The translations under genes and the position numbers were made by a program. Source: a virus. Taken from it: a DNA stretch of 64,000 nucleotides. The notes below the pieces were generated by a model. It saw only the letters and a list, made by a program, of their open reading frames with translations. It did not search any database and had not been told where the DNA came from. Location of the stretch: IMG/VR virus record IMGVR_UViG_3300025914_000009, positions 32,001 through 96,000 of that record; one strand, written 5' to 3'. Each line of letters starts with the position of its first letter. The first letter of the stretch is position 1. This document shows positions 5,050-27,663 of this stretch, one piece after another.

Positions 5050-6594
5050 TTAGAACTGAGGAACTTCTTCTATAACGACGCAACGTGATAAATCTTCTAT
5101 AAAGACATCGTATCTATCATCCATGAAGATAGTATAACCATCAAACATGTTGGCAGCTGAGTGACCTTGTGATCTCATAGCTCCAAGGTGATGTCTACGC
5201 CCATCAATATATCCCCATGTCATTGAGGGTCTTCCCTTCATTCTTACTTCTCTGATATTGTTTCTCAGAGATCCATCTCCCTCAGGGGAAATGTCAAAGA
5301 CAAGGAATAATGGAGTTGATTTCTTATTCTGACCGAACTCAAGGTTAGATTGAGGTAAATCCAGTTCTTTTAAGTGAACCAGCTCAATTCTACCTGTTTC
5401 ACGAGTTACCATGCTTGAGAAGGCATAGTTTAGTGTTAGTTTCTGTTCAGCACCCTGAATGAATCTTGTATCAGCAATGATAGTAAGACCACTATTGAGA
5501 GCATCATCTTTCAGAGCTTGGTCGAATACATCGAACCCTGCTTCATTAGTGTATATCTTAACTCTTCTTTGTGCTACATCTACACGTCTGTAGAACAGAT
5601 CTCCAAACACAGCACGGAAGATATTAGTTGAGAACTCACCTCTGTTATACTGAACAAGGTTACCATTGTTTCTCATTCTGTAGTAAACTCCAGAAGATAC
5701 TTTCTTAACCTCTTGCTTAGAACCTCTTGTCTTCACGATACCTGGTTTACCCCAGATCATCTTTTGTACTTTCAGATCAAGCATTGCTTTTCTCATCCAG
5801 AACTCAATGAAAGGTTCCCATCTGATATCATGACGAGTAACTGGTTTCTCGTTTCTCTTACCATTGATGTACACCATCAGGTCAAGAGGCATACCATCTT
5901 TGTTCTTGAGCATACGATCATCTGCCCAACCAGTGATAGTATGTTTGTAACCTACAGCTGAACCTAAAGATTCATACATTGTGATCTTTTCAGCCATACG
6001 AGGAAGACCAGGAAGATCTTCATCGAACTCACCAATTGATTGATTTACAAGAGTAAACTCAATACCAGGTTCAAGGAATGTAGGATCAACGAACTCAACT
6101 TTAGGATTGCTCGATACAAGCGTGGCAGTGTAAAGGAATCCCATGTTGTAAGGCTGCGGATCTCTTATGATAGCAAATTGCTGACCATAGATCTTGTGTG
6201 GAGTGATGATCATATTCTGAGTGAACTCAGCTGAATCCATCACGAACTGGAACTCCTGACCATCAATACCTGGAGTGGTAAGATTCAGTGTGCTCGTAGG
6301 AACCTCGATGATCTTAGGGAATTTGTATGGTACTTCTACTTCCCATTGCCATGCATCAGAGTTGGTATCAATGTAGAACGGAGTAGACTTGTTGATCATG
6401 TCCAGGAAGTCATTGGCATACAATGAGCTCTGTGTATAAATGGAGATAATCTTCTTATCATAGTCCGCAGGATCTGTGGTATGGAAAGACTCCAGGTGAT
6501 TTGTGTCTGTGAGCTTACCAATAGCACGTTTGTCCATTGAAGCTACCCTGGCATAGGCAAAACCAGTAAAACCAGGTATTGTTTGTAAAGCCAT
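5050..6594 (-). CDS. Major capsid protein (crAss-like)
   Basis: 514 aa, follows acidic scaffold and portal; size and position typical of crAss-like MCP; followed by a terminator. Confidence 0.85.
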   Translation of the reverse strand: MALQTIPGFTGFAYARVASMDKRAIGKLTDTNHLESFHTTDPADYDKKIISIYTQSSLYANDFLDMINKSTPFYIDTNSDAWQWEVEVPYKFPKIIEVPTSTLNLTTPGIDGQEFQFVMDSAEFTQNMIITPHKIYGQQFAIIRDPQPYNMGFLYTATLVSSNPKVEFVDPTFLEPGIEFTLVNQSIGEFDEDLPGLPRMAEKITMYESLGSAVGYKHTITGWADDRMLKNKDGMPLDLMVYINGKRNEKPVTRHDIRWEPFIEFWMRKAMLDLKVQKMIWGKPGIVKTRGSKQEVKKVSSGVYYRMRNNGNLVQYNRGEFSTNIFRAVFGDLFYRRVDVAQRRVKIYTNEAGFDVFDQALKDDALNSGLTIIADTRFIQGAEQKLTLNYAFSSMVTRETGRIELVHLKELDLPQSNLEFGQNKKSTPLFLVFDISPEGDGSLRNNIREVRMKGRPSMTWGYIDGRRHHLGAMRSQGHSAANMFDGYTIFMDDRYDVFIEDLSRCVVIEEVPQF

Positions 6595-6620
6595 CTTTAC
6601 GCTATTATTTTGTTATAGGA

Positions 6621-7889
6621 TTATTGGGAAAACCAAGATTTGGGTTGAGCTTCTTCCTCTGTCTTCTTATTACCACCAGTTTTCATGGCAGTCTTCTTAA
6701 GACCTTTGAAGAGTTCATTACTTTCTTTAGATACTGCCTTTTTGGCTAATTTCGTAAGTTGAGGATCTTCTTTCAAAAGTTGCATAAGCATAGCTACTTT
6801 AACTCTAAGTTCGTGATTTTCAGGTCTCTTCAGATCCATTATATCCTTGTCAAAAGTTGTAAGTAGTTCCCCATCGGGGGTTTGGAATCTGTCCTGGGTG
6901 AGATAGGCATATGTATTCTCAGCGAACTTCTTATCTACAGGGATTCCATCAAAATCTTTATTTTTCATCTTATCAGAAAGGATTCTGCCAACATTGTTGA
7001 CATACTCAGTTTTGATCTGCTGCTTTCTGGTAATTTCTTCTTGCTTTCTGGCTGCGGCCTCTGTGATTTCCTTTTCCTCTTTGGCTACCAGGATCTTTTG
7101 AGCTTCTGTAGCTTCATCGAGTAAGTCATTATAATTCTTTAGCTGAGTAACTCTTTTCTCGATATATTCAGAAGATCTACCTTCTGATCTGTACAACTCT
7201 CTCACAATTCTTTCCTGATTACCTTCATCGGTAAGGTCAATTTCTTTGATACCTTCTACTTTAGTATAGCGGCTCAGATAGTCAACTGGGTTAATACCTT
7301 TTACAAAGACATTTTCAAACATGTCCTTATAATTATCGCCAAACCTTGCAAGGAACTTATCTATTACTTGGGAAGCTTGCTTTCTTGATTCGTACTGGAA
7401 TCTATCGAGCAGTTCTTCCGGAGTACCTACTTCTATACCCTCCTCATCTTCATCGAGATTAAAGATACCATGATTCACAAGCTCTTGAGCTATTGTGTTG
7501 AACATGTTCTCCTCACCCTCTTCAGTAGTAGCTTCTTCCTCTGTTTCCTTAGGGGAATCTTTGGGAGATTTGGCTGGAGGTTTAGTTCCTTCCTCTTCGG
7601 TTTCTTCTGATCTTTCTTCAAGAACATCATAGATATCCTTGTCTTTTATCTCAGGAGTTTCTTCCTCAGTTTCTTCTTCTTCTTCTATAACCTCTTCTTT
7701 CTTCTTTACAGGTGGTTGCTTCTTAACTGCCTTCTTAACAGATACCTCTTCTTCAGTTTCTGTTTTGGAAGGTATTACCTTTATATCTTCAGGATCAGAG
7801 CTAAGGAATGCTTCCCCAGCTTGGATCTCTTCTGTAGACATGATTCCAAAGTCACCTGCAGAGAAAGAAAATTGTTCTCTGTCCGCCAT
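6621..7889 (-). CDS. Putative scaffolding protein
   Basis: Highly acidic, coiled-coil-like 422 aa ORF between portal and MCP. Confidence 0.65.
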   Translation of the reverse strand: MADREQFSFSAGDFGIMSTEEIQAGEAFLSSDPEDIKVIPSKTETEEEVSVKKAVKKQPPVKKKEEVIEEEEETEEETPEIKDKDIYDVLEERSEETEEEGTKPPAKSPKDSPKETEEEATTEEGEENMFNTIAQELVNHGIFNLDEDEEGIEVGTPEELLDRFQYESRKQASQVIDKFLARFGDNYKDMFENVFVKGINPVDYLSRYTKVEGIKEIDLTDEGNQERIVRELYRSEGRSSEYIEKRVTQLKNYNDLLDEATEAQKILVAKEEKEITEAAARKQEEITRKQQIKTEYVNNVGRILSDKMKNKDFDGIPVDKKFAENTYAYLTQDRFQTPDGELLTTFDKDIMDLKRPENHELRVKVAMLMQLLKEDPQLTKLAKKAVSKESNELFKGLKKTAMKTGGNKKTEEEAQPKSWFSQ

Positions 7890-7922
7890 ATTTAGTTGAT
7901 TTTATTGGTTTTCAACAGGATG

Positions 7923-7953
7923 TAAAATTATGTGTATTTATATTACCAGCAAA
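7923..7953 (-). promoter_or_regulatory. Bacteroidota sigmaA-type promoter for scaffold/MCP
   Basis: TTTG-N19-TAATTTTA on minus strand. Confidence 0.55.
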
Positions 7954-7996
7954 GACTTTGCTCCTAAAAGGCTGATTAATATTGCTTAATATAGCA

Positions 7997-8329
7997 TTAG
8001 GATTCATCATCCGATTCGAAAGATTCACCTGTTTCATTATAGACAGGCCAGTCTCCCTCACATAGTCTCATTTCAACAACTGCTTTCTCCCATCTTTCAC
8101 AGAGTTCTTCAAAGGATTCAGCTACCAGGATCTTCTCTCCATCATACATCTGGACTATGCTCTTAGTAGAAGTATATCCAATTACCTTATATATTTCCCC
8201 TACCGGAAGGGCCATTGCTCTCCATACCCATTGTTTGGACTTAGCAATGATGCCCATATCCATTTCCTCCAGCTCCATGTCTTCCTCCGAGACAAGCTTT
8301 ACCTTGGCTTTCAGTTTTAATAGACTCAT
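7997..8329 (-). CDS. Hypothetical protein
   Basis: 110 aa ORF coupled to portal stop. Confidence 0.6.
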   Translation of the reverse strand: MSLLKLKAKVKLVSEEDMELEEMDMGIIAKSKQWVWRAMALPVGEIYKVIGYTSTKSIVQMYDGEKILVAESFEELCERWEKAVVEMRLCEGDWPVYNETGESFESDDES

Positions 8330-10917
8330 TATTTAGATTTTGATTTCTTTGCCTGGGCCTTCTTAGCCTTGATATCCATTCTCTTCATCTGGAGCTGAGC
8401 TTGGATTTTCTCCTTATCTAGCGCGATCTTTCTGAGCTCCATCGCAATATAATCATTCGACTCTTTGGCCTTCTGCTGGATTTGAGATAGTTTAAGTTGG
8501 TATTCCCTATCCTTACCAATGCTTTCTTGTGTAAGTCTATTAGCTTCTGCGATATCTTCATCTCCTGCATTTTCAATTGGGTTCATTGCACTTCTTTCTT
8601 TGGCTGCTGCTGCTATTAGAGCAATCTCCTTCTTATTAAGTCTATCCAGCTCATTTTGCCCGGCTTCAAATTCTTTATCTAATTGATCCTGGATGGCTGC
8701 CTGTTCCTGCTCATGCTGGAACATAGCTTGCTGCTGCTGTTGATCCTGTTGCTTAAGCTGTTGTTCTTGTTGCTGCATTGCTTCCATTTTCTCCTTTAAG
8801 GACTTGAATACTTGCTTCATTGTCCTGATAGAGTTGGTAGTATATAGTACAGATATTTCATATGGAGTAGCTCCATTCTGTAGCATTGGTTGAGCAAGCT
8901 GTCTGAGATCTTCAAAGGCTTTTTGATCCTGGGCTCTGGTAGTAACAAATACCTGTAGATCCCTAAGGGTGATGTCTTCAGAGTTAACTCTAATGAAGGC
9001 TTGTTCTCCTTCTGTATTGATATAGGAAATGGTTGACTCTGGTTTCTTTACTTCTATATGCTGAACTGCATCCAGAATAGCTTGATATACATCATTTAAT
9101 ACATACTCATGTTGTGCAAAGTATGGTTCTGTCTGAGCATAGGATTGAGATAAGGCAGTATTTGTACCTGTAGCAGTTTGAGTTGCAGCTACTCCACCTG
9201 TTCTTTCTCTGGTAATACCTACCAGTTCCCATGCTTCCTGTTTAAGCTGCATAGCCAGAGTGTATCTGCTTTGGATTTCAGCAGTCCTTGTCCAGTCTAT
9301 ATTCTTAAACATGTTGAAGTTAGATGGACTCTTCAGGTTTTCAGGAGAGTCATCTACTATAACAACCCCTCTTTTTCTGGCCTCCTGCTCCCAGATATCC
9401 AGTGCATCCTGAGCATCCCCATCCTTAGGGATAGGAATGTGCCTCATAGACATAAGGTACACATTACCAATTTCCTTCTCCAGCAGCTTATAGAGCTGGT
9501 TCATACATACATTGTACAGAATCTGATAAGGTTTTAGTAGGTCAATTAAGCTCTTAGCTTCATTTATGTTCTTGATCTCATGAACTACTCCAATAATAGG
9601 GCAGTAGTTCAGAAGTTCAAAGGGCTCCACATTATATACATCAGATCCAATCTTGTAGCCTTTATACCATTGGTTTATATAGTTCCACTCGATTGATACC
9701 TGGTTTGGTACTCTCTTATAAGACTCATCTACTAAAGTGGTCTGTTCTACTCCCTCTTCGTCCTTAAATATCAGTCTCCCCACTTTCTTTTTTGAGCACC
9801 AATAGGCTTGAACTACTACATACTTATTACCAAAAGTATTTACATTGGATGATAAGCCAAGAAAGTCATTAAGAGGATCCACGTTCTCTTTGAGCATTGA
9901 CTCAACCAGAAGTCTTTGTTGTACTATAAATGGGGAATAAGTATCATATTTGATTGATTCCCATCCACTTACGTTAGGATTCTCAAAGTTCGATTCCCTT
10001 GGGGAGAATAGAGAGAGTTCTCTTACACCTTTTCTTAAGTGATCAATCTCTTTCTTATCCAGATCAAATCTCTCAATAATCTCACTAAGCTCCATTACAT
10101 GCACTGTCCCTGCAGCAAAGGCATCTTTAAGATACTTCTTATCAGGAAGAGTCAAGAACCATACATTCTTTGGGTTTAGATTTTCTACTCCTACCCCCAG
10201 CTTTGAGTTAGTCTCATATATGTGATAGAACTCTCTTGAGCAGATTAAAAGATCTCTAAAGCAATCTTCTGAGATCTCCTTCATGTTCATCTGCATCTTC
10301 ATGGCTTCCAAAACATGATTTCCCCATTTCTCTGCAGTAGAAGTATAGTCAGTCAGATACTCTGATACCTTCTCCATTGTAAGTTGTTCCAGATCCTGAT
10401 CATTAGAAGGACTGCCTTGTCCTTGTACTCCTGACTGAACAGCAATCTTAGACTTAGCTTGTTCCATTATGAATTGCTGTAATATCTCAGTCTTGAATTG
10501 AAGCTCCTCATTTTTTGAATCATCATCAAAAGCCTTAACCCTAGCTACATCTGGTCTTCTTGTAAGCTCTCCTAACATGGTATTCATAGGAGGGTTTAAG
10601 ATAGGATAGTGCTTCACATAGTTAGGGAGTTCTACATCTCTTACTACTGTATCTGCAAAGGATCTAAGTTCAGGATCATCTGTATCATTAATATAGAAAT
10701 CCTGTGGTCTGAGAATCCCCTTTACCAGGTTATAGTTATTTACAAAGGTATCTTTACCTTTAATAAATTGAGAGTAGGCCACATTGGCAAAGTAGTCCAT
10801 ATTGGACTTTATCCAGTCATCTGTTCCTTTCTCTGCTTCTGGTACGAACTGATCAGGATAAATGTTCCACCTTGCCCAGTCAAGGTTCTGATCCTTTGAG
10901 TGAATGATTATAGGCAT
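8329..10917 (-). CDS. Portal protein
   Basis: 862 aa directly after terminase, Gln-rich coiled-coil C-terminus typical of podovirus/crAss portals. Confidence 0.85.
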   Translation of the reverse strand: MPIIIHSKDQNLDWARWNIYPDQFVPEAEKGTDDWIKSNMDYFANVAYSQFIKGKDTFVNNYNLVKGILRPQDFYINDTDDPELRSFADTVVRDVELPNYVKHYPILNPPMNTMLGELTRRPDVARVKAFDDDSKNEELQFKTEILQQFIMEQAKSKIAVQSGVQGQGSPSNDQDLEQLTMEKVSEYLTDYTSTAEKWGNHVLEAMKMQMNMKEISEDCFRDLLICSREFYHIYETNSKLGVGVENLNPKNVWFLTLPDKKYLKDAFAAGTVHVMELSEIIERFDLDKKEIDHLRKGVRELSLFSPRESNFENPNVSGWESIKYDTYSPFIVQQRLLVESMLKENVDPLNDFLGLSSNVNTFGNKYVVVQAYWCSKKKVGRLIFKDEEGVEQTTLVDESYKRVPNQVSIEWNYINQWYKGYKIGSDVYNVEPFELLNYCPIIGVVHEIKNINEAKSLIDLLKPYQILYNVCMNQLYKLLEKEIGNVYLMSMRHIPIPKDGDAQDALDIWEQEARKRGVVIVDDSPENLKSPSNFNMFKNIDWTRTAEIQSRYTLAMQLKQEAWELVGITRERTGGVAATQTATGTNTALSQSYAQTEPYFAQHEYVLNDVYQAILDAVQHIEVKKPESTISYINTEGEQAFIRVNSEDITLRDLQVFVTTRAQDQKAFEDLRQLAQPMLQNGATPYEISVLYTTNSIRTMKQVFKSLKEKMEAMQQQEQQLKQQDQQQQQAMFQHEQEQAAIQDQLDKEFEAGQNELDRLNKKEIALIAAAAKERSAMNPIENAGDEDIAEANRLTQESIGKDREYQLKLSQIQQKAKESNDYIAMELRKIALDKEKIQAQLQMKRMDIKAKKAQAKKSKSK

Positions 10918-10920
10918 CTG

Positions 10921-13017
10921 TTATATAAATAATTTTGATCTTCTTCTACCATTATTATATCTGATTGGAGAAGAGTTTGAGAAGTCGATTACTTTGTTTG
11001 TGCTTTTTTGTCCCTTGAAGTAAGCTTCAAATCTGGGATCTTTCTTTTCTGTGGATACTACGAACTGTGGATTAAGATGATCCGCCAGGGCAATGGCCAG
11101 CTCCGCAGCTACTATACGGTCATAGTTCCCTTCCTCTGAGTTGAAGTTAATAATTTCTTCCAAGAGCATAGGATCAAATACTCTGGTTACTCCCAGGGTC
11201 TCTATATTCTTCTCCTCTTCTCTGAAGATGACATCATCCAGATAAGATTTAAGTAGACCATCCAGGTGGTTCCTGATCCTATCACTCGATCTATGAATAC
11301 CATAATCCCTTCTAACTGAGGTATTTGGAACTATTTCTCTAAGCCAGCTCGGTTGAGGGGCCAGGTATCTTGCAGCTTCTCCTTTCTTGAGCATATAATC
11401 TATAAAGCTATACTCATCATTTTCACAAAGGGTATAGGCATTATAGTACTTAATGAGGAGTCTGGCAGTCTCATTCCACTTGTCTTTACTATCTGGCCTG
11501 GCTACATAAGAAGCTACAAATAGGTTTTGATATCTATCCGAGGCAATGTCATGTACCCTTTTAAAGATATACACTGCCCCAAGGGAGTCTGAATATTCAG
11601 ATCTACTCTGTCTATAAGGGTCAACTCCAGCTGTATAGAGTCCGAATGGTGGTTCATCATCTATTGGGAACTCCCAAATGACTGGAGGAGCATCAAGTGA
11701 AGTTGTGCTATCTGCAGGAAACTTGCTGATTGGTAGTTTATCACTGAACTTATGGCAAATCTTTTCTCCATCATGATATAAGTCTACCGGAGTACCAGTC
11801 TTCCCAAGGGCAGTAAGTCTATTCTTTTGAGCTTTAGCAGCTTCGATATTAAAGTCATTCTTTGTAAGAACCAGGAAGCTATCAGATGGAACCAGAGGCC
11901 AGAAGGCTTTGAACTTCAATACAGTCTTCTGATTACCAGATTTTATAGCTCTTGCATATTCTTTTTCCCACCACTCCCTAGCCTTCTCATAGTTGGTTAC
12001 CAGAATGGTAATTCTTTCTAAGTCAGGGTGTTGTATTCCCAAATAATCAGATAGCTTCATTGGATCCTTGTACTTGATCTTAGCCATTAAGGCATCAATG
12101 AATCTACCCATCTTTGTTCCTGGTATTTCAGGATTATCAAAGGGGAGTATGTTATAGGCTTCAGGGTGAAGGAACACTTCAGATGCCTCTTTACCTTTTT
12201 CCATATCACCCCCAGTGCCTGCTATCATAGCAAGACAGGAAGGTTTATCTTCTTTGGATGTACCAGACCACCAGGCACCTTCAGAGTCTTTGAAACAGGC
12301 AATGAAGTTTCTAATGGTACCAATTTCATCTATAAGATGGAAACCAGGTCTAGCTCCTACTGCTGCATCGCTCTTTGATCCTTCTTCAAAGTTTCTTATC
12401 TGTATAGATGATTGAGAAGATAAAGGAGATGTTATCCCTGTCTTCTTATCTTTCCAACCAGCCTTTATTTCTTTTTTCCAGTCATTAACAATCCTTTGCT
12501 TCTGCAGGATTGGATGTAGATTGATCAGACCATCTTCTACCTTATCAGTAGCAAGCTTGATATATGTACCATTACCTGCACTGATGATAGCTTCTGATTT
12601 GTCAAAGAGAGTGTACTGATAACCAGCTCTTGAGCCAGCCATGATAGATTTCCCGAAGTCACGAGATCCAACCAGGGCATAGAACTTACCTTTCTGTTCA
12701 CATTGAGTAAAGTCATCAGCTATTATCCACTCAATGTCCCTGAGATAGGGAGTATCAATAATTCTGATCTTCTTATTAAGTCTTTCATTTTCAATGTACA
12801 TGGCGATTTTCCAGTACACTGTGTGCCAATAGAGCCATCCAGAAATGTATACTTTCCCATCTGCCAGATAAAAGCCTTCCTTCATCCTACGCTTTTCTTC
12901 AGTCCAGTACTCCCTAAAGGTTTCCATAGCTGCTTCATCTGTAGGATCGTAAATAGGTTCTACCTGGTCGGGGAACCAAATGTTTTTAGTTTTCTGGGTA
13001 TACTTCTGGTCTATCAT
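10921..13017 (-). CDS. terL: Terminase large subunit
   Basis: Walker A-like GSRDFGKS, Walker B LIDEIG, GTGG coupling motif, nuclease GVDPY and YDRIVA. Confidence 0.92.
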   Translation of the reverse strand: MIDQKYTQKTKNIWFPDQVEPIYDPTDEAAMETFREYWTEEKRRMKEGFYLADGKVYISGWLYWHTVYWKIAMYIENERLNKKIRIIDTPYLRDIEWIIADDFTQCEQKGKFYALVGSRDFGKSIMAGSRAGYQYTLFDKSEAIISAGNGTYIKLATDKVEDGLINLHPILQKQRIVNDWKKEIKAGWKDKKTGITSPLSSQSSIQIRNFEEGSKSDAAVGARPGFHLIDEIGTIRNFIACFKDSEGAWWSGTSKEDKPSCLAMIAGTGGDMEKGKEASEVFLHPEAYNILPFDNPEIPGTKMGRFIDALMAKIKYKDPMKLSDYLGIQHPDLERITILVTNYEKAREWWEKEYARAIKSGNQKTVLKFKAFWPLVPSDSFLVLTKNDFNIEAAKAQKNRLTALGKTGTPVDLYHDGEKICHKFSDKLPISKFPADSTTSLDAPPVIWEFPIDDEPPFGLYTAGVDPYRQSRSEYSDSLGAVYIFKRVHDIASDRYQNLFVASYVARPDSKDKWNETARLLIKYYNAYTLCENDEYSFIDYMLKKGEAARYLAPQPSWLREIVPNTSVRRDYGIHRSSDRIRNHLDGLLKSYLDDVIFREEEKNIETLGVTRVFDPMLLEEIINFNSEEGNYDRIVAAELAIALADHLNPQFVVSTEKKDPRFEAYFKGQKSTNKVIDFSNSSPIRYNNGRRRSKLFI

Positions 13018-13992: not shown

Positions 13993-14290
13993 CTTCCAGT
14001 TTTTTGATTATTTCTAACTCTTCTTCCTGAGTCATGTGAGCTTTCCATTTCCCCAAGGGGCATTCCTGAGATAGGGCTCTGGTCTTAAGATGTAGGTCAC
14101 AACCACATACTGTGCAGTGAAAATCTGGTCTGAAGGTCTTATAATTATTGATCTCTTTCTGAGCCTCAGAGTTTAGAAGGCAATGATTTCTGCATATATC
14201 CTCTCTCTGATTAGCCACATCTTCTATCTCCTTCTTAACGAAAATGGAGTTCCAGGTTCCTTCTAATATTCCTTTAAGACTTATTTTCAT
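13970..14290 (-). CDS. Zn-finger protein
   Basis: CRNHC...CTVCGC...CPLGKW. Confidence 0.65.
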   Translation of the reverse strand: MKISLKGILEGTWNSIFVKKEIEDVANQREDICRNHCLLNSEAQKEINNYKTFRPDFHCTVCGCDLHLKTRALSQECPLGKWKAHMTQEEELEIIKKLEDESSQAK

Positions 14291-14648
14291 ATCCTCCCTT
14301 TTTGGTTTTCATATAGGCAACTGTGGCCTTGAGCTTTTCCATCATGTTATTCCAAGTCTCCATATTCCTGATTTCCTCAGGTCTATCTTTAAGCTTAGCT
14401 TCCATATTGAAGATAAGTATTTCCAACTTCTGTATCTTCCTTCTAATCTTATTAGGAGAGGTCATGAACTTTCCAAATCCTGAGATCTCTACCTGTTCAT
14501 GATCTACCATTGCATCTCTTGCATCTTTAAACTGAAACATAATAACTTTCTCTACTATGTCTTCAGGAACTAAGGTCTTTATAGCAGTCCTTGTTATAAG
14601 AACACCTTTCAACTTGTCAGCATCTATACTACTCTGATTCTTTTGCAC
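14274..14648 (-). CDS. HU/IHF-like DNA-binding protein
   Basis: QVEISGFGKF signature. Confidence 0.75.
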   Translation of the reverse strand: MQKNQSSIDADKLKGVLITRTAIKTLVPEDIVEKVIMFQFKDARDAMVDHEQVEISGFGKFMTSPNKIRRKIQKLEILIFNMEAKLKDRPEEIRNMETWNNMMEKLKATVAYMKTKKGGYENKS

Positions 14649-14988
14649 TTCCTGCCAGGTTTATTTGTAACTGAATATCTTTTGAAAAGTCAAGAGCAAT
14701 CTTTGGATTCACTCTATATTTCATATCTATCTGTACAAGAAAGCCAGCCTTCACAAGTTCCTGCTTCATATTCTCCAGAGATGCAAGTGAGCTATTAAAC
14801 ATCTCAACAAACTCCTTTCTAGCCGCAGGGGATGTTATGCTCCCTCGGGCAGCTGTGAATGCCAGGAGGTATAGCTGCTTTTGTGGAAGTCTTACTTCAT
14901 TCAGAGCAAGCAGTACAGAATAATACTTTATTGCCTTTTCCACCTCAGTAGCTACCTCTCTTCGTATTTTCTGCACAATTACCTTCAT
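14629..14988 (-). CDS. Putative winged-helix DNA-binding protein
   Basis: LENMKQELVKAGFLVQ...YRVNP pattern. Confidence 0.55.
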   Translation of the reverse strand: MKVIVQKIRREVATEVEKAIKYYSVLLALNEVRLPQKQLYLLAFTAARGSITSPAARKEFVEMFNSSLASLENMKQELVKAGFLVQIDMKYRVNPKIALDFSKDIQLQINLAGSAKESE

Positions 14989-15098
14989 GTAGCTTGGTTT
15001 TCTTTTACAAAGTTATGGGCTTTTTTGGAAGTAATATATAACTCTTTGGGATGTAATGCTATAAAAAGCAAAAATCCTCCCAATATGAGAGGATCTTG

Positions 15099-15170
15099 AG
15101 GCAGATATCTGAATCGAACAGATGTATAGGGCTTTTGCAGAACCCGACCTTTCCACTTGGCTAATCTGCC
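15099..15170 (-). tRNA. tRNA-Cys(GCA)
   Basis: Cloverleaf, loop CT-GCA-AA, TTCGA T-loop. Confidence 0.9.
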
Positions 15171-15173
15171 TTA

Positions 15174-15249
15174 TGCACGTATCGGGGGAATCGAACCCAG
15201 TCCTCCTACAGTTTTGGAGACTGCTTGGCCACCATGGCCTGACACGTGT
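15174..15249 (-). tRNA. tRNA-Trp(CCA)
   Basis: Loop CT-CCA-AA. Confidence 0.85.
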
Positions 15250-15253
15250 GTAG

Positions 15254-15324
15254 ACTACCCTGCAAGATTCGAACTTGCGTTCTAACATCCGTAGTGTTGA
15301 GTCCTTCCACTGAACGAAGGGTAG
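15254..15324 (-). tRNA. tRNA-Arg(ACG)
   Basis: Loop CT-ACG-GA. Confidence 0.9.
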
Positions 15325-15327
15325 TGG

Positions 15328-15398
15328 GGTGGAGTGCAGAGTCGAACTGCCTTACCTGGTTCACAGCCAAGTCCATTCACCGAATTGGTATCTCCACA
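15328..15398 (-). tRNA. tRNA-His(GTG)
   Basis: Loop CT-GTG-AA; ends approximate. Confidence 0.85.
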
Positions 15399-15399
15399 G

Positions 15400-15471
15400 A
15401 TGCCCCTGGAGGAATCGAACCTACCATCATGAGATCCAAAAGCTCACGCCCTTCCATTGTGCTAAGGGGCA
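15400..15471 (-). tRNA. tRNA-Gln(TTG)
   Basis: Loop TT-TTG-GA with a 31:39 mismatch. Confidence 0.8.
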
Positions 15472-15482
15472 TTAAAAAAATG

Positions 15483-15554
15483 TGGTACAGAGTGGACTTG
15501 AACCACCAACGCCCAGCTCTTCAGGCTGGCGCTCTACATTGGAGCTACTGCACC
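15483..15554 (-). tRNA. tRNA-Phe(GAA)
   Basis: CCAGC CT-GAA-GA GCTGG. Confidence 0.92.
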
Positions 15555-15559
15555 ATATG

Positions 15560-15631
15560 AGCCTGAGCAGGAACTCGAATCCTGTTCTGATGCTTACAAG
15601 GCAACTGCACCACCATCAGTGCTTCTCAGGC
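15560..15631 (-). tRNA. tRNA-Thr(TGT)
   Basis: Loop CT-TGT-AA. Confidence 0.88.
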
Positions 15632-15636
15632 TTATG

Positions 15637-15712
15637 TTGGGTGAATAGGATTCGAACCTACGCTTTCAGCCTCCCAAAGGCTGCCGGAAAAACCTGGCTT
15701 CCGTACCACCCA
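15637..15712 (-). tRNA. tRNA-Pro(TGG)
   Basis: CAGCC TT-TGG-GA GGCTG. Confidence 0.9.
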
Positions 15713-15715
15713 ATA

Positions 15716-15752
15716 TAAAAGAAAAACCCCCAGTCTTGGTAGAAAGGGGGTT
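15716..15752 (-). terminator. Attenuator terminator of tRNA operon A
   Basis: AACCCCC...GGGGGTT followed by TTTCTTTT between leader ORF and first tRNA. Confidence 0.8.
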
Positions 15753-15773
15753 GACATGCAAGAGCTTTATATC

Positions 15774-15848
15774 CTATACATACATGACAACTCCCTTCCC
15801 TGGTTGAGGGCAGAAGGTAAACCACGTATGACGAAATACTTTATTCAT
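15774..15848 (-). CDS. Leader peptide A (MNKVFRHTWFTFCPQPGKGVVMYV)
   Basis: 24 aa ORF just after promoter; codons 5-16 use only F,R,H,T,W,C,P,Q, the downstream tRNA set. Confidence 0.85.
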   Translation of the reverse strand: MNKVFRHTWFTFCPQPGKGVVMYV

Positions 15849-15852
15849 AATG

Positions 15853-15884
15853 CAAATATATGGTGAATATTTTAATCCACCAAA
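15853..15884 (-). promoter_or_regulatory. Bacteroidota sigmaA promoter, tRNA operon A
   Basis: TTTG-N20-TATATTTG. Confidence 0.85.
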
Positions 15885-15890
15885 AAAAAG

Positions 15891-15975
15891 TTGCACAGGT
15901 CAGATTCGAACTGACAAAGGCTAAAGCCCCGAGTTTTACAGACTCAGAAGGATCTCCCACTCCTGTCGCAGTGCA
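15891..15975 (-). tRNA. tRNA-Tyr(GTA)
   Basis: Loop CT-GTA-AA, long variable arm. Confidence 0.85.
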
Positions 15976-15980
15976 ATGTA

Positions 15981-16065
15981 AGAGGAGAGCAGTGGCCCTG
16001 ATCCACATCCCCGAGGGAACAGTCAGCTTAGCAGGCTGCTCCTACATCGTGTAGGTTTACTCTCC
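15981..16065 (-). tRNA. tRNA-Ser(GCT)
   Basis: Loop CT-GCT-AA, long variable arm, atypical T-loop. Confidence 0.8.
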
Positions 16066-16072
16066 TTATAAG

Positions 16073-16165
16073 AGGAAGGCTGAGGACTCGAACCCCACTC
16101 CTGCTCATCGCCGAGCCCTAGTTTTCAAGACTAGTCGCCGCTCCTGTGCAGCTGCATAACCTTCC
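16073..16165 (-). tRNA. tRNA-Ser(TGA)
   Basis: CTAGT CT-TGA-AA ACTAG, long variable arm. Confidence 0.88.
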
Positions 16166-16171
16166 TTATAG

Positions 16172-16245
16172 TATCCCTGGTAGGACTTGAACCTACAGAA
16201 CTCAGATTTTAAGTCTGATATGGTTACCTATTACATCACAGGGAT
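16172..16245 (-). tRNA. tRNA-Leu(TAA), short variable arm
   Basis: TCAGA CT-TAA-AA TCTGA. Confidence 0.85.
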
Positions 16246-16250
16246 AAGTG

Positions 16251-16323
16251 TACCGAGGATGGGATTCGAACCCACACTTTTCAGTTCCTAAGACTGTTGC
16301 CTCTCCCGTTGGGCTACCAAGGT
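16251..16323 (-). tRNA. tRNA-Leu(TAG), short variable arm
   Basis: Loop CT-TAG-GA. Confidence 0.85.
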
Positions 16324-16327
16324 ATGT

Positions 16328-16363
16328 AAAACAAAAAACCCAGCTGTAGAAACAGACTGGGCT
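16328..16363 (-). terminator. Attenuator terminator of tRNA operon B
   Basis: GCCCAGTCTGTTTCTACAGCTGGGTTTTTTG on minus strand. Confidence 0.8.
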
Positions 16364-16385
16364 AAAAAATAAAGTCTAATGAACT

Positions 16386-16454
16386 TTACATACTATACCC
16401 AGCCTGTCTGTGTAACAGGAGTGAACTGGAATAGTATGATAGAAGATTGAACAT
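16386..16454 (-). CDS. Leader peptide B (MFNLLSYYSSSLLLHRQAGYSM)
   Basis: 22 aa ORF just after promoter; codons 4-14 are only Leu/Ser/Tyr, the downstream tRNA set. Confidence 0.85.
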   Translation of the reverse strand: MFNLLSYYSSSLLLHRQAGYSM

Positions 16455-16458
16455 GATG

Positions 16459-16490
16459 CAAATGTAATAACTCTTTTTGAATTTTCCAAA
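16459..16490 (-). promoter_or_regulatory. Bacteroidota sigmaA promoter, tRNA operon B
   Basis: TTTG-N20-TACATTTG. Confidence 0.85.
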
Positions 16491-16499
16491 TAATTCTAG

Positions 16500-16573
16500 T
16501 GGAGCTAAAGAGAATCGAACTCTTCTCAGGCTCCTTGCAAGGGAGCTTCGCCAGCCTTGGAACATGTAACCCC
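16500..16573 (-). tRNA. tRNA-Ala(TGC)
   Basis: GCTCC CT-TGC-AA GGAGC; G3:U70 present. Confidence 0.9.
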
Positions 16574-16679
16574 TAAATCTGAAGCATAACCTTTCTACCT
16601 TCTCTGTAAACAGCTTTATTACAGTTATGAAATTGTATACCAGTAGATTGTACATGCTCCAGAGGTTCTTTCAAACCAG

Positions 16680-16752
16680 TTGCCTGAGGTGGGATCGAAC
16701 CACCAGCCTTCTTCGTATCAGGAAGTTGCTCAGACCATTGAGCTACCAGGCA
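16680..16752 (-). tRNA. tRNA-Ile(GAT)
   Basis: Loop CT-GAT-AC. Confidence 0.88.
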
Positions 16753-16844
16753 ATTTGATATAGGGGAAGAGGTGGTTCTTACACAGCCCACCTTCAGAAG
16801 TGTGCTTCTTCCAGGTTTTCACCCTCCCCCACTATATCTTCTAG

Positions 16845-16918
16845 TTGTCCCTAAGGGAGTTGAACCCTTGATCTTCTCATTATGAGTGAGCTGCTCTGAC
16901 CACCTGAGCTAAGGGACG
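16845..16918 (-). tRNA. tRNA with CAT anticodon, probably Ile2 (lysidine type)
   Basis: Loop CT-CAT-AA; body CCCTTAGCTCAG..GGTCAGAGCAG resembles bacterial Ile2; leader C contains an ATA codon. Confidence 0.75.
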
Positions 16919-16925
16919 ATTTGAG

Positions 16926-16998
16926 CCGAGAGTGGGGGATTCGAACCCCAACCTTCACCTTGACAGGGTGATACTGCAGCCATTACACCACACCCTCG
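16926..16998 (-). tRNA. tRNA-Asp(GTC)
   Basis: TCACC CT-GTC-AA GGTGA; ends approximate. Confidence 0.85.
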
Positions 16999-17087
16999 GA
17001 TTAGCCACATGCCGGACAATTACTTGACTGCTGTTAGAAACCAGCTGGTTTCCATCTTTTTTGTCCGCATGTAGCTTTAATTATTTG

Positions 17088-17161
17088 TACTCCCAGTGGG
17101 AATTGAACCCTACATTTTTACCTTGAAAGGGTAATGTCCTTACCATTTAGACGATGGGAGC
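17088..17161 (-). tRNA. tRNA-Glu(TTC)
   Basis: TTACC CT-TTC-AA GGTAA. Confidence 0.9.
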
Positions 17162-17182
17162 ATAGCTCCTCACCCTCCTTTA

Positions 17183-17395
17183 TTACATTAGCCATCTTAT
17201 CAATAGTTTAGCCTCCATTACTGGAAGAAATTTCGCATCCTGTATGTCCCCCAGGGGAATGGAGAAATTAATGATTCCATCAATAGAACCTGTCCAAAGG
17301 TTAGTCATGTACAGCATCCTTTCTTTATCCACATACAAAAGCTCAGCCTTTGGATTTTTCTTATACAACTCCTTTTTAATTTCATTTAGTTCCAT
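17183..17395 (-). CDS. Hypothetical protein inside tRNA operon C
   Basis: MELNEIKKELYK...; start taken just after tRNA-Gly. Confidence 0.65.
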   Translation of the reverse strand: MELNEIKKELYKKNPKAELLYVDKERMLYMTNLWTGSIDGIINFSIPLGDIQDAKFLPVMEAKLLIRWLM

Positions 17396-17396
17396 G

Positions 17397-17467
17397 AGCA
17401 CCAACAGGGAGTCGAACCCTGCTCTCAGGCTTGGAAGGCTAGTGCATTACCGAAATGCTTCTGGTGC
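17397..17467 (-). tRNA. tRNA-Gly(TCC)
   Basis: Loop CT-TCC-AA. Confidence 0.85.
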
Positions 17468-17518
17468 ATAGAGGGGGACAGGTTATTTAATCCTTTAAGG
17501 GACTCCCCCAGACCCTGG

Positions 17519-17593
17519 TTGCGGGAGAGGGAATCGAACCCTCGTAGTTCAGCTTATGAGACTGAGCTGGCACCATCTCCAGTCTACCCCGCA
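17519..17593 (-). tRNA. tRNA-Met(CAT)
   Basis: TCAGT CT-CAT-AA GCTGA; fMet-like acceptor TGCGGGG but no triple G-C anticodon stem. Confidence 0.8.
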
Positions 17594-17841
17594 ATCTTTA
17601 ATTGTTTCTTTTCCTCCTCTGTCAAATCATAATCCTCTTTTACCAAAGTCAAAATTAAGTTAAGTTCCTCAGCAAATCTAATTCTTCCTCTAAAGACTAT
17701 TTCATCAAACCTCTTATTTCTGATAGACACTATACTAAAATCATGAGAGTCATTTTTTAATATAGTTATCTGATAAGAATCATCATGAAACTGCCATGGC
17801 AACCTCTGCTCGAAACCTAGTTCTAACAAGTGCTCTTTCAT
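17584..17841 (-). CDS. Hypothetical protein inside tRNA operon C
   Basis: 85 aa ORF between tRNA-Asn and tRNA-Met. Confidence 0.6.
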   Translation of the reverse strand: MKEHLLELGFEQRLPWQFHDDSYQITILKNDSHDFSIVSIRNKRFDEIVFRGRIRFAEELNLILTLVKEDYDLTEEEKKQLKIAG

Positions 17842-17842
17842 G

Positions 17843-17915
17843 AGGACAGTTTAGGGATCGAACCTAAGACCTAAGAGTTAACAGCTCTTTGCTACTGCCA
17901 CTGAGCTAACTGTCC
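17843..17915 (-). tRNA. tRNA-Asn(GTT)
   Basis: AAGAG CT-GTT-AA CTCTT. Confidence 0.9.
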
Positions 17916-17959
17916 ATTTCCAGTTTTGTACTCCACGCAGATACTGGTAAACTGACCTG

Positions 17960-18031
17960 AGGACTTACAAGGAATCCAACCTTGATAGCTTGCTTAGAAG
18001 GCAAGAGCTCTATGCATTGAGCTATAAGTCC
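17960..18031 (-). tRNA. tRNA-Arg(TCT)
   Basis: CTTGC CT-TCT-AA GCAAG. Confidence 0.88.
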
Positions 18032-18034
18032 ATG

Positions 18035-18107
18035 TTGTCCCACTTAGAATCGAACTAAGGTCGCTAGTTTGTAAGACTAGAGCACTCAACCACTGTGCTA
18101 TAGGACA
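18035..18107 (-). tRNA. tRNA-Val(TAC)
   Basis: CTAGT CT-TAC-AA ACTAG. Confidence 0.9.
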
Positions 18108-18113
18108 ATCTTG

Positions 18114-18185
18114 TTCCCCTGGAAGGGCTCGAACCTTCAACCTTCTCCTTAAGAGGGAGTAGCTCTACCATTAAGCTACAGAGGA
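18114..18185 (-). tRNA. tRNA-Lys(CTT)
   Basis: Loop CT-CTT-AA. Confidence 0.88.
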
Positions 18186-18197
18186 ATTTTATCTCTG

Positions 18198-18268
18198 TAC
18201 CCCCACCAAGGATCGAACTTGGTTCCACTGGTTAAAAGCCAGTTACTTCACCATAAAGCTTTGAGGGT
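18198..18268 (-). tRNA. tRNA-Lys(TTT)
   Basis: ACTGG CT-TTT-AA CCAGT. Confidence 0.88.
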
Positions 18269-18274
18269 AATTGT

Positions 18275-18312
18275 AAACAAAAATCCCCAGAGCTTATGGG
18301 CTCCAGGGACTC
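18275..18312 (-). terminator. Attenuator terminator of tRNA operon C
   Basis: GAGTCCCTGGAGC-CCATAA-GCTCTGGGGA-TTTTTG. Confidence 0.8.
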
Positions 18313-18334
18313 TTGTTTGCTGTTTATAAACCTG

Positions 18335-18415
18335 TTAATTAGCAGACAGTGGAATCCCTGGAGCAGATTTCTCTGCACCTCTTACAATCCCATTATCCAC
18401 TATTGAGTAAAACAT
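18335..18415 (-). CDS. Leader peptide C (MFYSIVDNGIVRGAEKSAPGIPLSAN)
   Basis: 26 aa ORF after promoter; codons 5-16 use only I,V,D,N,G,R(AGA),A,E,K, the downstream tRNA set. Confidence 0.85.
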   Translation of the reverse strand: MFYSIVDNGIVRGAEKSAPGIPLSAN

Positions 18416-18438
18416 TGTTTGCTTTTTTAAGATTTTAG

Positions 18439-18470
18439 CAAATATAATACCACTTTTTGACATGGCCAAA
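18439..18470 (-). promoter_or_regulatory. Bacteroidota sigmaA promoter, tRNA operon C
   Basis: TTTG-N20-TATATTTG. Confidence 0.85.
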
Positions 18471-18478
18471 TAATTCCA

Positions 18479-18898
18479 CTACTTTTTTTCTCCTAGCTCC
18501 CCTGGGGAAGATAGCTGATTAGAGTCACAAATTATACCCAGGACTGGCTGACCTATCTTCCCTGAACTCTGCCTCTTCTCCATAAACTCATCCAGCTTAG
18601 CTTCAAACTTCTTCCTTGGCCAGGTACACACAAACTCTCCATACATATCACTGACCACAATAGTCAGATCAAATCCTCCTTCAGCTACCTCCTCTACCTT
18701 CCTCTCTCTGGAAAATCCATCATGCCACATAAGCTTATGAAGATCTCTGGCAGGTATCCTAACCCAACCAGTAATCCAATCTATTGGCACAGGCTCCTCA
18801 GTAGTATCTTTATCTTCCTGTTCCATAGCCTTCTTAACAGAGAATCCATCATATATCTTCATAGGAAAGCTAAAGAACTCTTCAGTGAATTTACCCAT
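18479..18898 (-). CDS. Hypothetical protein
   Basis: 139 aa ORF with its own promoter. Confidence 0.7.
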   Translation of the reverse strand: MGKFTEEFFSFPMKIYDGFSVKKAMEQEDKDTTEEPVPIDWITGWVRIPARDLHKLMWHDGFSRERKVEEVAEGGFDLTIVVSDMYGEFVCTWPRKKFEAKLDEFMEKRQSSGKIGQPVLGIICDSNQLSSPGELGEKK

Positions 18899-18913
18899 AC
18901 TTTATATTTTATT

Positions 18914-18945
18914 CAAAGGTAATACGTTATAGTGGAATTTCCAAA
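18914..18945 (-). promoter_or_regulatory. Bacteroidota sigmaA promoter
   Basis: TTTG-N20-TACCTTTG. Confidence 0.8.
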
Positions 18946-19771
18946 TGGTGAATAAGTGAGAGAGACCTGTCAGTACTTATAGTACTTGCCCCTGGGAGTA
19001 CTTGGAAGTTAATAGATTTGAGCCCCCTACTAACGGTAGGTATCAGAAAAACTCGGGGTTTTGTCTCATAGGCTTTTTATATAACCTATTGATATATAAT
19101 TACTTAATCCCAATATCTTCGGTTAACCATGTTTTAAAACTTATGTATATCTATGAGTATGATGGTGACACCATCCCTTGACCCCTTGGCAAAATCGTCG
19201 TGCTGGGGGTATCCCCCCATGACCCCTTGGGGAAAGTGCGATTCAGATTATGTCACATCGCCTTGAAAATCAAGGATTTATGTTTTAAGGAGTCGAACCA
19301 AAGCCAGAGGTTGGGAACCAGTAGTACCAATACAGCGTGAGGAAAGCTCCTTATACATATATATAATGGTATAACCCTAAAACCCCATCAACATGGTACT
19401 AACAGCAGTCATAACAACAGCTTTAATAGTCTCTGCATTCATTTGGAACCACAAGATGAACAGAGCTAAGTGATTGATACACAATGAATTGGGACGGTCA
19501 GAGAGAGTTTGAGTACACTTTACAACTCATAACTCTCTCATTTTCTATTACTTAGTTAACCTGATGAGGAATAGTATACATTATGGCATTTATTACACCA
19601 CTACATATATGTTATCTACTATATTCCCTTAGGGAGGATATAGATAACCTTTTAGAGCTCAATATTAAAATGGTCTTCAAGCAGGGCTAAAATACTGTGA
19701 ATACTACAGAAAACAGTAGTTAGTTGACCTATTTTCGAATTAAATTTCTTCAACAATAAAACATCAAGACA

Positions 19772-20326
19772 ATGGCAGACACAAACACACAAACAACTGA
19801 ACAAGTTGCACAGCCAATGCAACAGGAGCCATCAGCTTTAGAAAGAGCTAAAATGGCTGACACAAGACAAGTTATTACTTTGGATGCTGAAGCAGCTTAT
19901 GATGAGCTTGAGCTATTTGGCACACAACCCGGTGAGTACAGAGAAGATTCACCAGTACAGGGTGAATACTGGAGATTTAAATTCAGAGGAGCAATTTGCA
20001 CTGTATCTCCTGAGTTTAAAGAGGCTTACGACAGTGGTAATCTGTTGAGCATTACAGCATCACCAACAGTATTTACAGTAACTAAAGCTGATCCTAACAA
20101 TGCTGGCAAGAAAATGGAGCAGGTTGGGTATGGTTACAGCCTGAGTTACAGCGATTTAGCCAAGAAACAGAAGGCACAAAAGGCTAAATTAGCTGCTAAA
20201 GAACTGGGCCTGAAAGCACAGGTACAGGAGCTTAAGATGGAGAAGAAGCTGGAGGCAATCAAAGCAGCTGATTTCAAAGTAGTGCTCACTGAAGATGAGA
20301 TGCAGGAGCTAATGGGAGCAATCTAA
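19772..20326 (+). CDS. Hypothetical protein (first long gene of plus arm)
   Basis: 184 aa ORF, A-rich leader, followed by terminator. Confidence 0.75.
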   Translation: MADTNTQTTEQVAQPMQQEPSALERAKMADTRQVITLDAEAAYDELELFGTQPGEYREDSPVQGEYWRFKFRGAICTVSPEFKEAYDSGNLLSITASPTVFTVTKADPNNAGKKMEQVGYGYSLSYSDLAKKQKAQKAKLAAKELGLKAQVQELKMEKKLEAIKAADFKVVLTEDEMQELMGAI

Positions 20327-27477: not shown

Positions 27478-27590
27478 ACTTCACGAAGTGACCTTTGGTT
27501 GGGGCACAGAAGTCAATCACTATTGTTAAAAATGTCCTTACAGGACAGGGAACCATTCGAGAGGAGTTTCTACTCCTCTCACTCTTTTTT

Positions 27591-27663
27591 GGGTGTGTAG
27601 CTCAATGGATAGAGTGTCTGACTTCGGATCAGAAAGTTAAGGGTTCGAATCCCTTCATGCCCA
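27591..27663 (+). tRNA. tRNA-Arg(TCG)
   Basis: Canonical cloverleaf, TCTGA CT-TCG-GA TCAGA. Confidence 0.92.

Follow-up and report, generated by a model that had tools for sequence, protein, structure and literature searches.

Candidate leader-peptide attenuators ahead of tRNA gene blocks in a virus genome and its relatives

We analyzed a 64,000-nucleotide (nt) stretch, hereafter the window, covering positions 32,001 to 96,000 of the 124,983-bp IMG/VR virus record IMGVR_UViG_3300025914_000009. In the window, large terminase, portal and major head genes lie on the minus strand at 5050-13017, preceded upstream on that strand by 25 transfer RNA (tRNA) genes arranged as an array (15098-18268). 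The interval 16328-16490, between tRNA-Ala and tRNA-Leu(tag), holds a promoter-like motif, a short open reading frame (ORF), a terminator and a T-run, an arrangement that we call cassette B. Here, we argue that cassette B is probably a ribosome-mediated transcription attenuator, whose leader peptide would gauge the supply of the tRNAs encoded directly behind it, and describe sister cassettes in the same array and in related phages.

Codon run, hairpins and terminator of cassette B

Read along the minus strand, the motif is followed by four bases, ORF B, a small hairpin, a bulged G+C-rich hairpin, the T-run UUUUUUGUUUU and tRNA-Leu(tag) (Table 1). Codons 4-14 of leader B are CTT CTA TCA TAC TAT TCC AGT TCA CTC CTG TTA, taking in 5 of the 6 Leu codons, 3 of the 6 Ser codons (TCA twice) and both Tyr codons; the preliminary description of this DNA had given this same make-up, and it matches the minus-strand reading. 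The tRNAs behind the leader are also those named there, Leu, Leu, Ser, Ser and Tyr, as called by ARAGORN with the Ser genes at lowered thresholds. The codon run thus names the amino acids of the next tRNA block, and the terminator lies right before the first tRNA of that block. A Leu/Ser/Tyr run of at least 11 codons occurs once among the 127,996 six-frame codon positions of the window, against 0.043 expected from six-frame composition.

The RNA of this leader is strongly structured. Over 127 nt it has a minimum free energy (MFE) of -38.3 kcal/mol (z -5.89), and none of 200 shuffles folds as well. The regulatory run occupies nt 10-42, region 2 nt 47-59 and the stop codon nt 67-69 of the leader, and the terminator is a local hairpin of -12.3 kcal/mol (helix at nt 92-118) followed by U6GU4, which a simple consensus scan does not list because its stem is bulged. 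An 11-bp pairing with G-U between leader and terminator arm, claimed from the first look at these letters, is indeed present: ACAGGCUGGGU and GCCCAGUCUGU form 11 base pairs, including two G-U, in a duplex of -20.0 kcal/mol that no dinucleotide shuffle of the ORF equals (0 of 1000). Compared with the terminator arms of all 27 cassettes described below, that of cassette B ranks first for its own leader. The 2:3 antiterminator and the 3:4 terminator are mutually exclusive, and the competing 1:2 pairing takes in the regulatory codons.

We modeled the ribosome as a mask of about 31 nt held unpaired and shifted it codon by codon along the leader, using three footprint sizes. The predicted probability of the terminator helix is 0.9 with no ribosome and with the A site at codons 1-2, falls to 0.0-0.1 with the A site at codons 4-13, recovers to 0.6 at codon 14 and reaches 1.0 from codon 15 through the stop, an outcome stable over the three footprint sizes. 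In this model, the stall positions that open the terminator coincide with the Leu/Ser/Tyr run, which is the logic of trp and his attenuation.

Table 1. Positions of the cassettes, RNA elements and tRNA blocks in the window
Feature	Position	Strand	Content	Basis
Promoter-like motif TTTG-N20-TAnnTTTG	16459..16490	-	Ends 4 nt ahead of the leader B ATG	
Leader ORF B	16386..16454	-	22 codons plus stop, MFNLLSYYSSSLLLHRQAGYSM (stop)	
Regulatory run LLSYYSSSLLL	16413..16445	-	11 codons, all cognate to the amino acids of the five downstream tRNAs	
Hairpin 1:2, naked leader	16389..16438 (nt 17-66)	-	5' strand nt 17-29 in the regulatory codons; 3' strand nt 53-66 holds region 2	MFE and centroid
Region 2, antiterminator strand in the ORF	16396..16408 (nt 47-59)	-	Complements the terminator 5' arm; ends 8 nt before the stop codon	
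Region 3, terminator 5' arm	16352..16363	-	AGCCCAGUCUGU; alternative partners region 2 or region 4	
Terminator loop, 3' arm (region 4) and T-run	16328..16351	-	3' arm ACAGCUGGG, T-run UUUUUUGUUUU; T-run ends 4 nt before the tRNA	
tRNA block B	15890..16323	-	Leu(tag) 16250-16323, Leu(taa) 16171-16245, Ser(tga) 16072-16165, Ser(gct) 15982-16065, Tyr(gta) 15890-15975	ARAGORN, Rfam
Cassette A	15713..15884	-	Motif 15853-15884, leader ORF 15848..15774 MNKVFRHTWFTFCPQPGKGVVMYV (stop), terminator, T-run	
tRNA block A	15098..15712	-	Pro, Thr, Phe, Gln, His, Arg(acg), Trp (15175-15247, 90% threshold), Cys	ARAGORN
Terminator-like site, array end	15097-15071	-	Directly after block A	
Cassette C	18269..18470	-	Motif 18439-18470, leader ORF 18415..18335 MFYSIVDNGIVRGAEKSAPGIPLSAN (stop), terminator, T-run	
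tRNA block C	16499..18268	-	Lys, Lys, Val, Arg(tct), Asn, Met, Gly, Glu, Asp, Met, Ile, Ala (16499-16573, 90% threshold)	ARAGORN

The frame of leader B is shared with an 89-codon ORF (16386-16655, minus strand) that begins in the spacer before tRNA-Ala and crosses both that tRNA gene and the promoter motif; this longer ORF is probably spurious.

Sister cassettes and co-variation in related phages

Two further cassettes, A and C, precede the other 20 tRNAs of the array. The run of leader A, FRHTWFTFCPQP, comprises 12 consecutive codons drawn from exactly the eight amino acids of block A; no other run of at least 12 codons from this 8-residue set occurs in the window, and it lies directly before the matching block. 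Their 2:3 duplexes are rarely equaled by shuffles (1 of 1000 for leader C, 3 of 1000 for leader A). The runs of leaders A, B and C divide up all 20 amino acids among them, and only Arg recurs, as CGT in leader A (tRNA acg) and as AGA in leader C (tRNA tct). In a related contig from soil run X3, leader A carries a 3-nt in-frame deletion at 15835.

The motif TTTG-N20-TAnnTTTG has 4 matches on the two strands of the window, where 1.56 are expected, and three of them directly precede leaders A, B and C. The fourth copy (18914-18945, minus strand) precedes a 139-amino-acid (aa) ORF at 18898..18479, upstream of cassette C, for which IMG/VR holds no relative; the four copies share one strand and span no more than 3.1 kb. 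Among relatives, the motif stands ahead of 7 of 16 leaders and is absent before the other 9, and therefore does not define the cassette.

A scan of IMG/VR with a TerL profile returned 72 loci, 13 of them with at least five tRNAs on the TerL strand; apart from these and from L056 and L057, the remaining 57 had 0-3 near TerL. Twelve loci were analyzed, namely 10 of the 13 array loci together with L056 and L057; L075 and L099 (apparent duplicates of L074 and L098, by tRNA order alone) and L093 (the L004 contig) were left out. A blind pipeline took as block start any tRNA after a gap with a hairpin and T-run, and as leader an ATG-started ORF, 10-50 codons long, whose end is no more than 80 nt ahead of the hairpin. 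It recovered leaders in 9 of the 12 loci and found no terminator-preceded block in L069, L056 and L057. The run of L098 is under the cut-off of 5, so this locus is outside the counts over 27 cassettes given here.

Cassettes are present in L004 (TerL 86% identical; all three cassettes), in L022 (a 1.8-kb metagenome contig; cassettes B and A), in eight more IMG/VR relatives whose TerL is 34-83% identical (L052, L055, L070, L074, L092, L094, L096 and L097), and in the cultured Leptolyngbya phage Lbo-JY46. Searches by other routes added little: the TerL relatives L006 and L007 and their records carry no tRNA array, a 25-nt tRNA-Leu pattern search and an alignment-based scan with relatives of an 85-aa ORF of block C each found the L004 contig only, and a 17-nt pattern hit 36 loci in metagenome contigs, of which one is a relative (L022) and 35 reflect chance or, in L015, an unrelated tRNA. 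The crAss-like phage cr111_1, inspected by eye, has a 24-tRNA array with no such leaders.

The peptides themselves are not conserved. The B leaders of L004 and L022 read LSYSSLYLL, of the same composition as in the window but of another order and length, and across the relatives B-type runs (LSYSSLYLL, LLLSYYSSLSLL, YYSLSLLSSL, LSYSSLYYLS, YLLSYLSSLSY) keep their composition and not their order. These observations bear on the idea that the ORFs encode functional micro-peptides, hydrophobic Leu/Ser/Tyr ones for example, whose place before tRNAs is incidental. Small phage peptides do exist, and the length of the leader ORFs is conserved at 21-36 codons; nevertheless, composition and not sequence is conserved, the three leaders of one genome are unrelated in composition and divide the 20 amino acids by tRNA block, and leader composition shifts with tRNA content. 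We reject this very improbable reading.

Lbo-JY46 (PP438436.1) is the nearest cultured phage by TerL (34.8% identity) and has the same tRNA order. Its leaders lie on the minus strand at 2629-2694, 3343-3423 and 6865-6975 of L049 (PP438436.1 116500-125312), and none is annotated as a gene. In the numbering of the full record, leader A is at about 119128-119193, leader B at 119842-119922 and leader C at 123364-123474. MKITRQHTQFWFPTGTGLGML precedes Pro, Thr, Phe, Gln, His, Arg and Trp; a leader beginning MKNFNTYYSLSLSLSQ precedes Leu, Leu and Ser; and one beginning MINSIDIRNIDIVCAEGVNKC precedes Lys, Cys, Cys, Arg, Asn, Met, Gly, Glu, Asp, Met, Ile and Ala. At these sites Rfam gives only sub-threshold matches to Thr, His and Phe leaders (23-25 bits versus gathering thresholds of 49-55). 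One tRNA of this phage is called Cys, with anticodon ACA, where the relatives carry Val(tac).

Leader codons follow the tRNAs when these change block. In the window, L004, L052 and L055, leader A holds the Cys codons and its block the Cys tRNA; in Lbo-JY46 and L092, leader C and its block hold them. L096 carries its Asp and Asn tRNAs in block A rather than C; its leader A, NNWHNTFNNFTPDQQD, has their codons and its leader C, VIIAGRGAERIVK, lacks D and N. The same genome has Arg(acg) in block C beside Arg(tct), and here leader C contains AGA and CGC while leader A has no Arg. In L070 and L074 the array is split into two blocks, Pro-Gln-His-Arg-Leu-Tyr-Glu and Ala-Asp-Asn-Trp-Thr-Arg-...-Cys, and their leaders follow this split (...HsYRPQQLLQ... 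and MMMNNWFNIIDTAFATRNCGKVGI); four tRNAs of L074 (Met, Lys, Ile and Val) are missing from L070, as are the matching residues from the L070 run.

With a set-independent rule, which takes codons 4-16 of the longest ORF, the true leader-to-block assignment had the top score among the within-genome permutations of all 9 genomes, which are related and not nine independent trials. This rule chose another ORF for the B cassettes of L094 and L096 and found no ATG-started leader for L052 C, for which a GTG-started leader with the run IIVDNIGRANEK was found post hoc. Matched against the 27 terminator arms, a leader ORF placed its own arm first in 14 of 27 cases and among the top three in 21 of 27, and 0 of 20000 permutations were as good. 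The order of run, region 2, stop, terminator and tRNA is kept in 26 of the 27 cassettes.

These results also dispose of the reading as a chance ORF beside an ordinary terminator. Counting ORFs of 20 aa or more, as many as 93 overlap 14000-19500, and a short ORF in this place is by itself unremarkable; yet the single long run in the window, where some 0.04 are expected, sits at the predicted place, and the pattern is found three times in this genome and again in relatives. On the run statistics, the permutation test and the own-arm pairing, we reject chance, to which we give almost no credence.

Matching extends to codon families. The Arg codons of the leaders fit the Arg anticodon of their block in 17 of 18 cases, CGN with Arg(acg) and AGR with Arg(tct), the exception being one AGG in leader A of L092. 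Codon-anticodon fit is 34/34 for Leu and 25/29 for Ser, and where the block of L070 has Leu(tag) alone, the Leu codons of the leader are all CTN. These patterns support the view that leaders match tRNAs at the codon level rather than the amino-acid level, as far as sequence comparison can tell. The preliminary description had argued for isoacceptor sensing from the codon spread of leader B. That argument does not hold: 10 distinct codons in 11 are not significant against phage codon usage (P=0.065 for the window, 0.27 for the relatives), and the chance of hitting all five isoacceptor classes is 0.64 and 0.49, respectively. What speaks for isoacceptor resolution is instead the codon-level matching, through the Arg families and the CTN codons of L070.

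The array itself has several unusual members. With ARAGORN defaults, 21 of the 25 tRNAs were called; the threshold had to be lowered to 90% to bring out Ala(tgc), Ser(tga) and Trp(cca), and to 80% for Ser(gct). Rfam supports 20 array genes as tRNA and gives weak matches for three more. Ser(tga) matches the tRNA-Sec model of Rfam at 33.1 bits, and Ser(gct), whose D and T loops are unusual, has no Rfam match. Relatives have ARAGORN calls for both Ser genes at corresponding positions (90% threshold), with Ser(gct) at the matching array position in L052, L092, L094, L096 and L098. Bacterial tRNA-Leu usually belongs to class II, with a long variable arm; here both tRNA-Leu genes (16171-16323, minus strand) are just 74-75 nt and lack it, and long arms are present in the genes for Tyr (86 nt) and Ser (94 and 84 nt). 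Block C also encloses two small protein genes on the minus strand, at 17584-17841 (85 aa) and 17183-17404 (73 aa), which would share a transcript with the block C tRNAs, under attenuator C. Neither a Pfam domain nor a PHROG match was found for the 85-aa protein; its 10 relatives are 56-91% identical. Outside the array, at 27540-27664 on the plus strand, a hairpin and T-run stop 2 nt ahead of an isolated tRNA-Arg(tcg). A short ORF in front, MSLQDREPFERSFYSSHSFLGV, uses AGG and not CGR, which places it outside the codon-matched pattern, and tRNA-like fragments lie farther upstream of this hairpin.

Proposed attenuation mechanism and competing explanations

Taken together, the unique run, the mutually exclusive pairings, the fold model, the sister cassettes and the co-variation across the clade support in silico what had been proposed from the letters of cassette B: a leader-peptide attenuator that gauges the tRNAs behind it. 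From sequence and modeling, we consider cassette B to be a ribosome-mediated transcription attenuator controlling a tRNA operon with a probability of roughly 0.8. RNA polymerase would start at the AUG or a few nt before it, and a ribosome would translate the leader during transcription. If aminoacyl-tRNA for Leu, Ser or Tyr codons were scarce, the ribosome would stall in codons 4-13 and melt 1:2, freeing region 2 to capture region 3, so that no terminator would form; the polymerase would then enter the Leu, Leu, Ser, Ser and Tyr tRNA genes, and RNase P would trim off the leader. With fast decoding, the ribosome would reach the stop codon, 8 nt beyond region 2, and mask region 2, allowing the 3:4 hairpin to end transcription 4-5 nt before the first tRNA. 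Without translation, 1:2 would form and transcription would terminate likewise. The outcome would be negative feedback on tRNA supply, block by block, with cassettes C, B and A acting in series. As the T-runs end 4-5 nt before the first tRNA, they leave no room for a promoter proper to blocks B and A, and the thirteen tRNAs of these blocks would be expressed only through read-through of the terminators.

Several results weigh against this interpretation. Across the 27 cassettes, the mask model gives a clear switch in 11, a partial switch in 8 and no switch in 7, including the B cassettes of L004 and L052, and it is anomalous in one, L096 B, where the terminator is not predicted even without a ribosome. 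In a truncated-transcript model, a proxy for co-transcriptional folding, 8 of the 27 pass. The codon spread discussed above is not significant, and host tRNAs decode the same codons. Some leader codons lack a partner: leader B of Lbo-JY46 has two Tyr and two AGT codons, with no Tyr or Ser(gct) tRNA found in its record, and leader C of the same phage has two Val codons and no Val tRNA; leader 1 of L070 and of L074 has Ser codons without a called Ser tRNA; and the AGG of L092 leader A has no matching tRNA in its block. Some of these missing partners may be overlooked atypical tRNAs; the Ser(gct) of the window itself needed an 80% threshold. Finally, translation of leader B needs a leaderless mRNA or one with a 4-nt leader, and the position of the motif suggests a transcript of this kind; the promoter reading in turn rests on a likeness to the Bacteroidota promoter consensus that we presume, and the identical motif stands before the leaders of a phage recorded on a cyanobacterium, which leaves both polymerase and host uncertain.

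Alternatively, the element might act as RNA only, with the ORF untranslated and the codon run a by-product; it might be a small RNA, a site of processing or a leaky terminator that holds tRNA output fixed and low. There is no Shine-Dalgarno-type signal on what is predicted to be a leaderless mRNA, and 7 of the 27 cassettes show no ribosome-dependent switch and L096 B no terminator. Such an element gives no reason, however, for the kept frame, for the position of the stop relative to region 2 (26 of 27) or for the codon families: in every genome, 9-23 in-frame codons are confined to the amino acids of the block while order and nucleotides drift, and the leader A deletion of the X3 contig is 3 nt long and in frame. 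We regard this possibility as quite unlikely.

A rather less remote rival, though still an unlikely one, keeps the attenuator hardware and changes the signal to amino-acid starvation, sensed as tRNA charging, which would tie tRNA transcription to host nutrition. A stalled ribosome cannot distinguish a missing tRNA from an uncharged one, classical leader-peptide attenuators all report charging, and the folded structures are compatible with a charging or a tRNA-abundance signal. Amino-acid starvation would stall the ribosome here too, and this counts against a gauge of tRNA supply, as extra tRNA cannot relieve starvation; by the same token, more tRNA would be a futile response to an amino-acid shortage. 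The block-specific codon match, seen in the Arg families (17/18) and in the tracking of tRNA relocation, is a prediction of product feedback that a starvation sensor does not need. We therefore favor attenuation by the supply of the encoded tRNAs. Its likely use would be to let the phage provide tRNAs as needed, where those of the host have been depleted or cleaved or are a poor match for the codon usage of the phage.

Relation to known attenuators and to phage tRNA use

Leader-peptide attenuators govern the amino-acid operons trp, his, leu and phe, and multivalent ones thr and ilvGMEDA. To our knowledge, all ribosome-mediated attenuators described so far control genes for amino-acid biosynthesis or aminoacyl-tRNA synthetases. 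The phage cassettes resemble the trp and his type in their codon-rich short ORF, their 1:2, 2:3 and 3:4 hairpins, a terminator before the first gene and a stop placed to mask region 2, and they resemble thr and ilv in that one leader reads several amino acids. Unlike the attenuators of amino-acid operons, cassette B would control tRNA genes only (block C also holds the two small ORFs), so that the loop would close on tRNA supply; and unlike classical leaders, those of the phages list 3 to 13 amino acids, are phage-borne and probably lie on a leaderless transcript. As the target is tRNA genes and not enzyme or synthetase genes, we consider the cassettes a variant of the attenuator kind and not members of a described family. 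A T-box or a described Rfam leader family (Trp, His, Leu, Thr or Phe) was rejected, with no match at E<=1 in 14000-20000. T-boxes make a similar choice between terminator and antiterminator according to the state of a specific tRNA, but they need no translation and contact the uncharged tRNA themselves, by means of a specifier codon and the T-box sequence, whereas the phage sensor would be a translated codon run.

The synthetase operon pheST, with its pheM leader, is likewise a case of ribosome-mediated attenuation of a translation-apparatus component for the same amino acid, with a synthetase as target and a single amino acid in the leader. PMC2965389 describes hisS in the same terms, again a synthetase and a single amino acid, in contrast to the phage cassettes, whose targets would be the tRNAs themselves, in blocks. 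In mycobacteria, leaderless polycysteine short ORFs are reported to act as Cys-responsive attenuators (bioRxiv 10.1101/834739): like the phage leaders they are leaderless and place a downstream operon under a codon run, and unlike them they read a single amino acid and have protein-coding targets. A parallel in purpose, and the closest published example of conditional tRNA-array expression, is the trn operon of Anabaena PCC 7120, a 26-gene tRNA array induced under translational stress, in which, as would hold for the phage array, accessory tRNAs are kept off and come on when translation is impaired; unlike in the phage cassettes, control there is by a protein repressor, TrcR, at the promoter (PMC10272220). 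PMC8421152, from 2021, contains no occurrence of "attenuat", "leader peptide" or "terminator". In the full-text literature, from whose coverage subscription journals are largely absent, no description of tRNA genes controlled by a leader peptide came up, nor any paper on Lbo-JY46.

Why and when phages use their own tRNA genes is a long-standing question. If the attenuator model is true, phage tRNA arrays would be demand-driven modules with a built-in sensor of decoding speed and not constitutive supplements, and the text of a leader would state which tRNAs the phage treats as one functional unit. Textbook attenuation would be extended to a new class of target, with leaders listing up to 13 amino acids, and compact, programmable, codon-specific sensors would become available to synthetic biology. 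As the design is present in the cultured phage Lbo-JY46, the idea is directly testable. We further suggest, tentatively and with somewhat less than even confidence, that the three cassettes form a full 20-amino-acid decoding gauge, by which the phage would detect the loss of a tRNA class to anticodon nucleases or host shut-off and resupply that block, down to the isoacceptor, with Arg CGN and AGR sensed separately. This would make the array a regulated counter-defense and translation-autonomy module common to a clade of roughly 120-kb phages, and the attenuators, if real, would provide a mechanistic link between phage tRNAs and the host defenses that deplete tRNAs.

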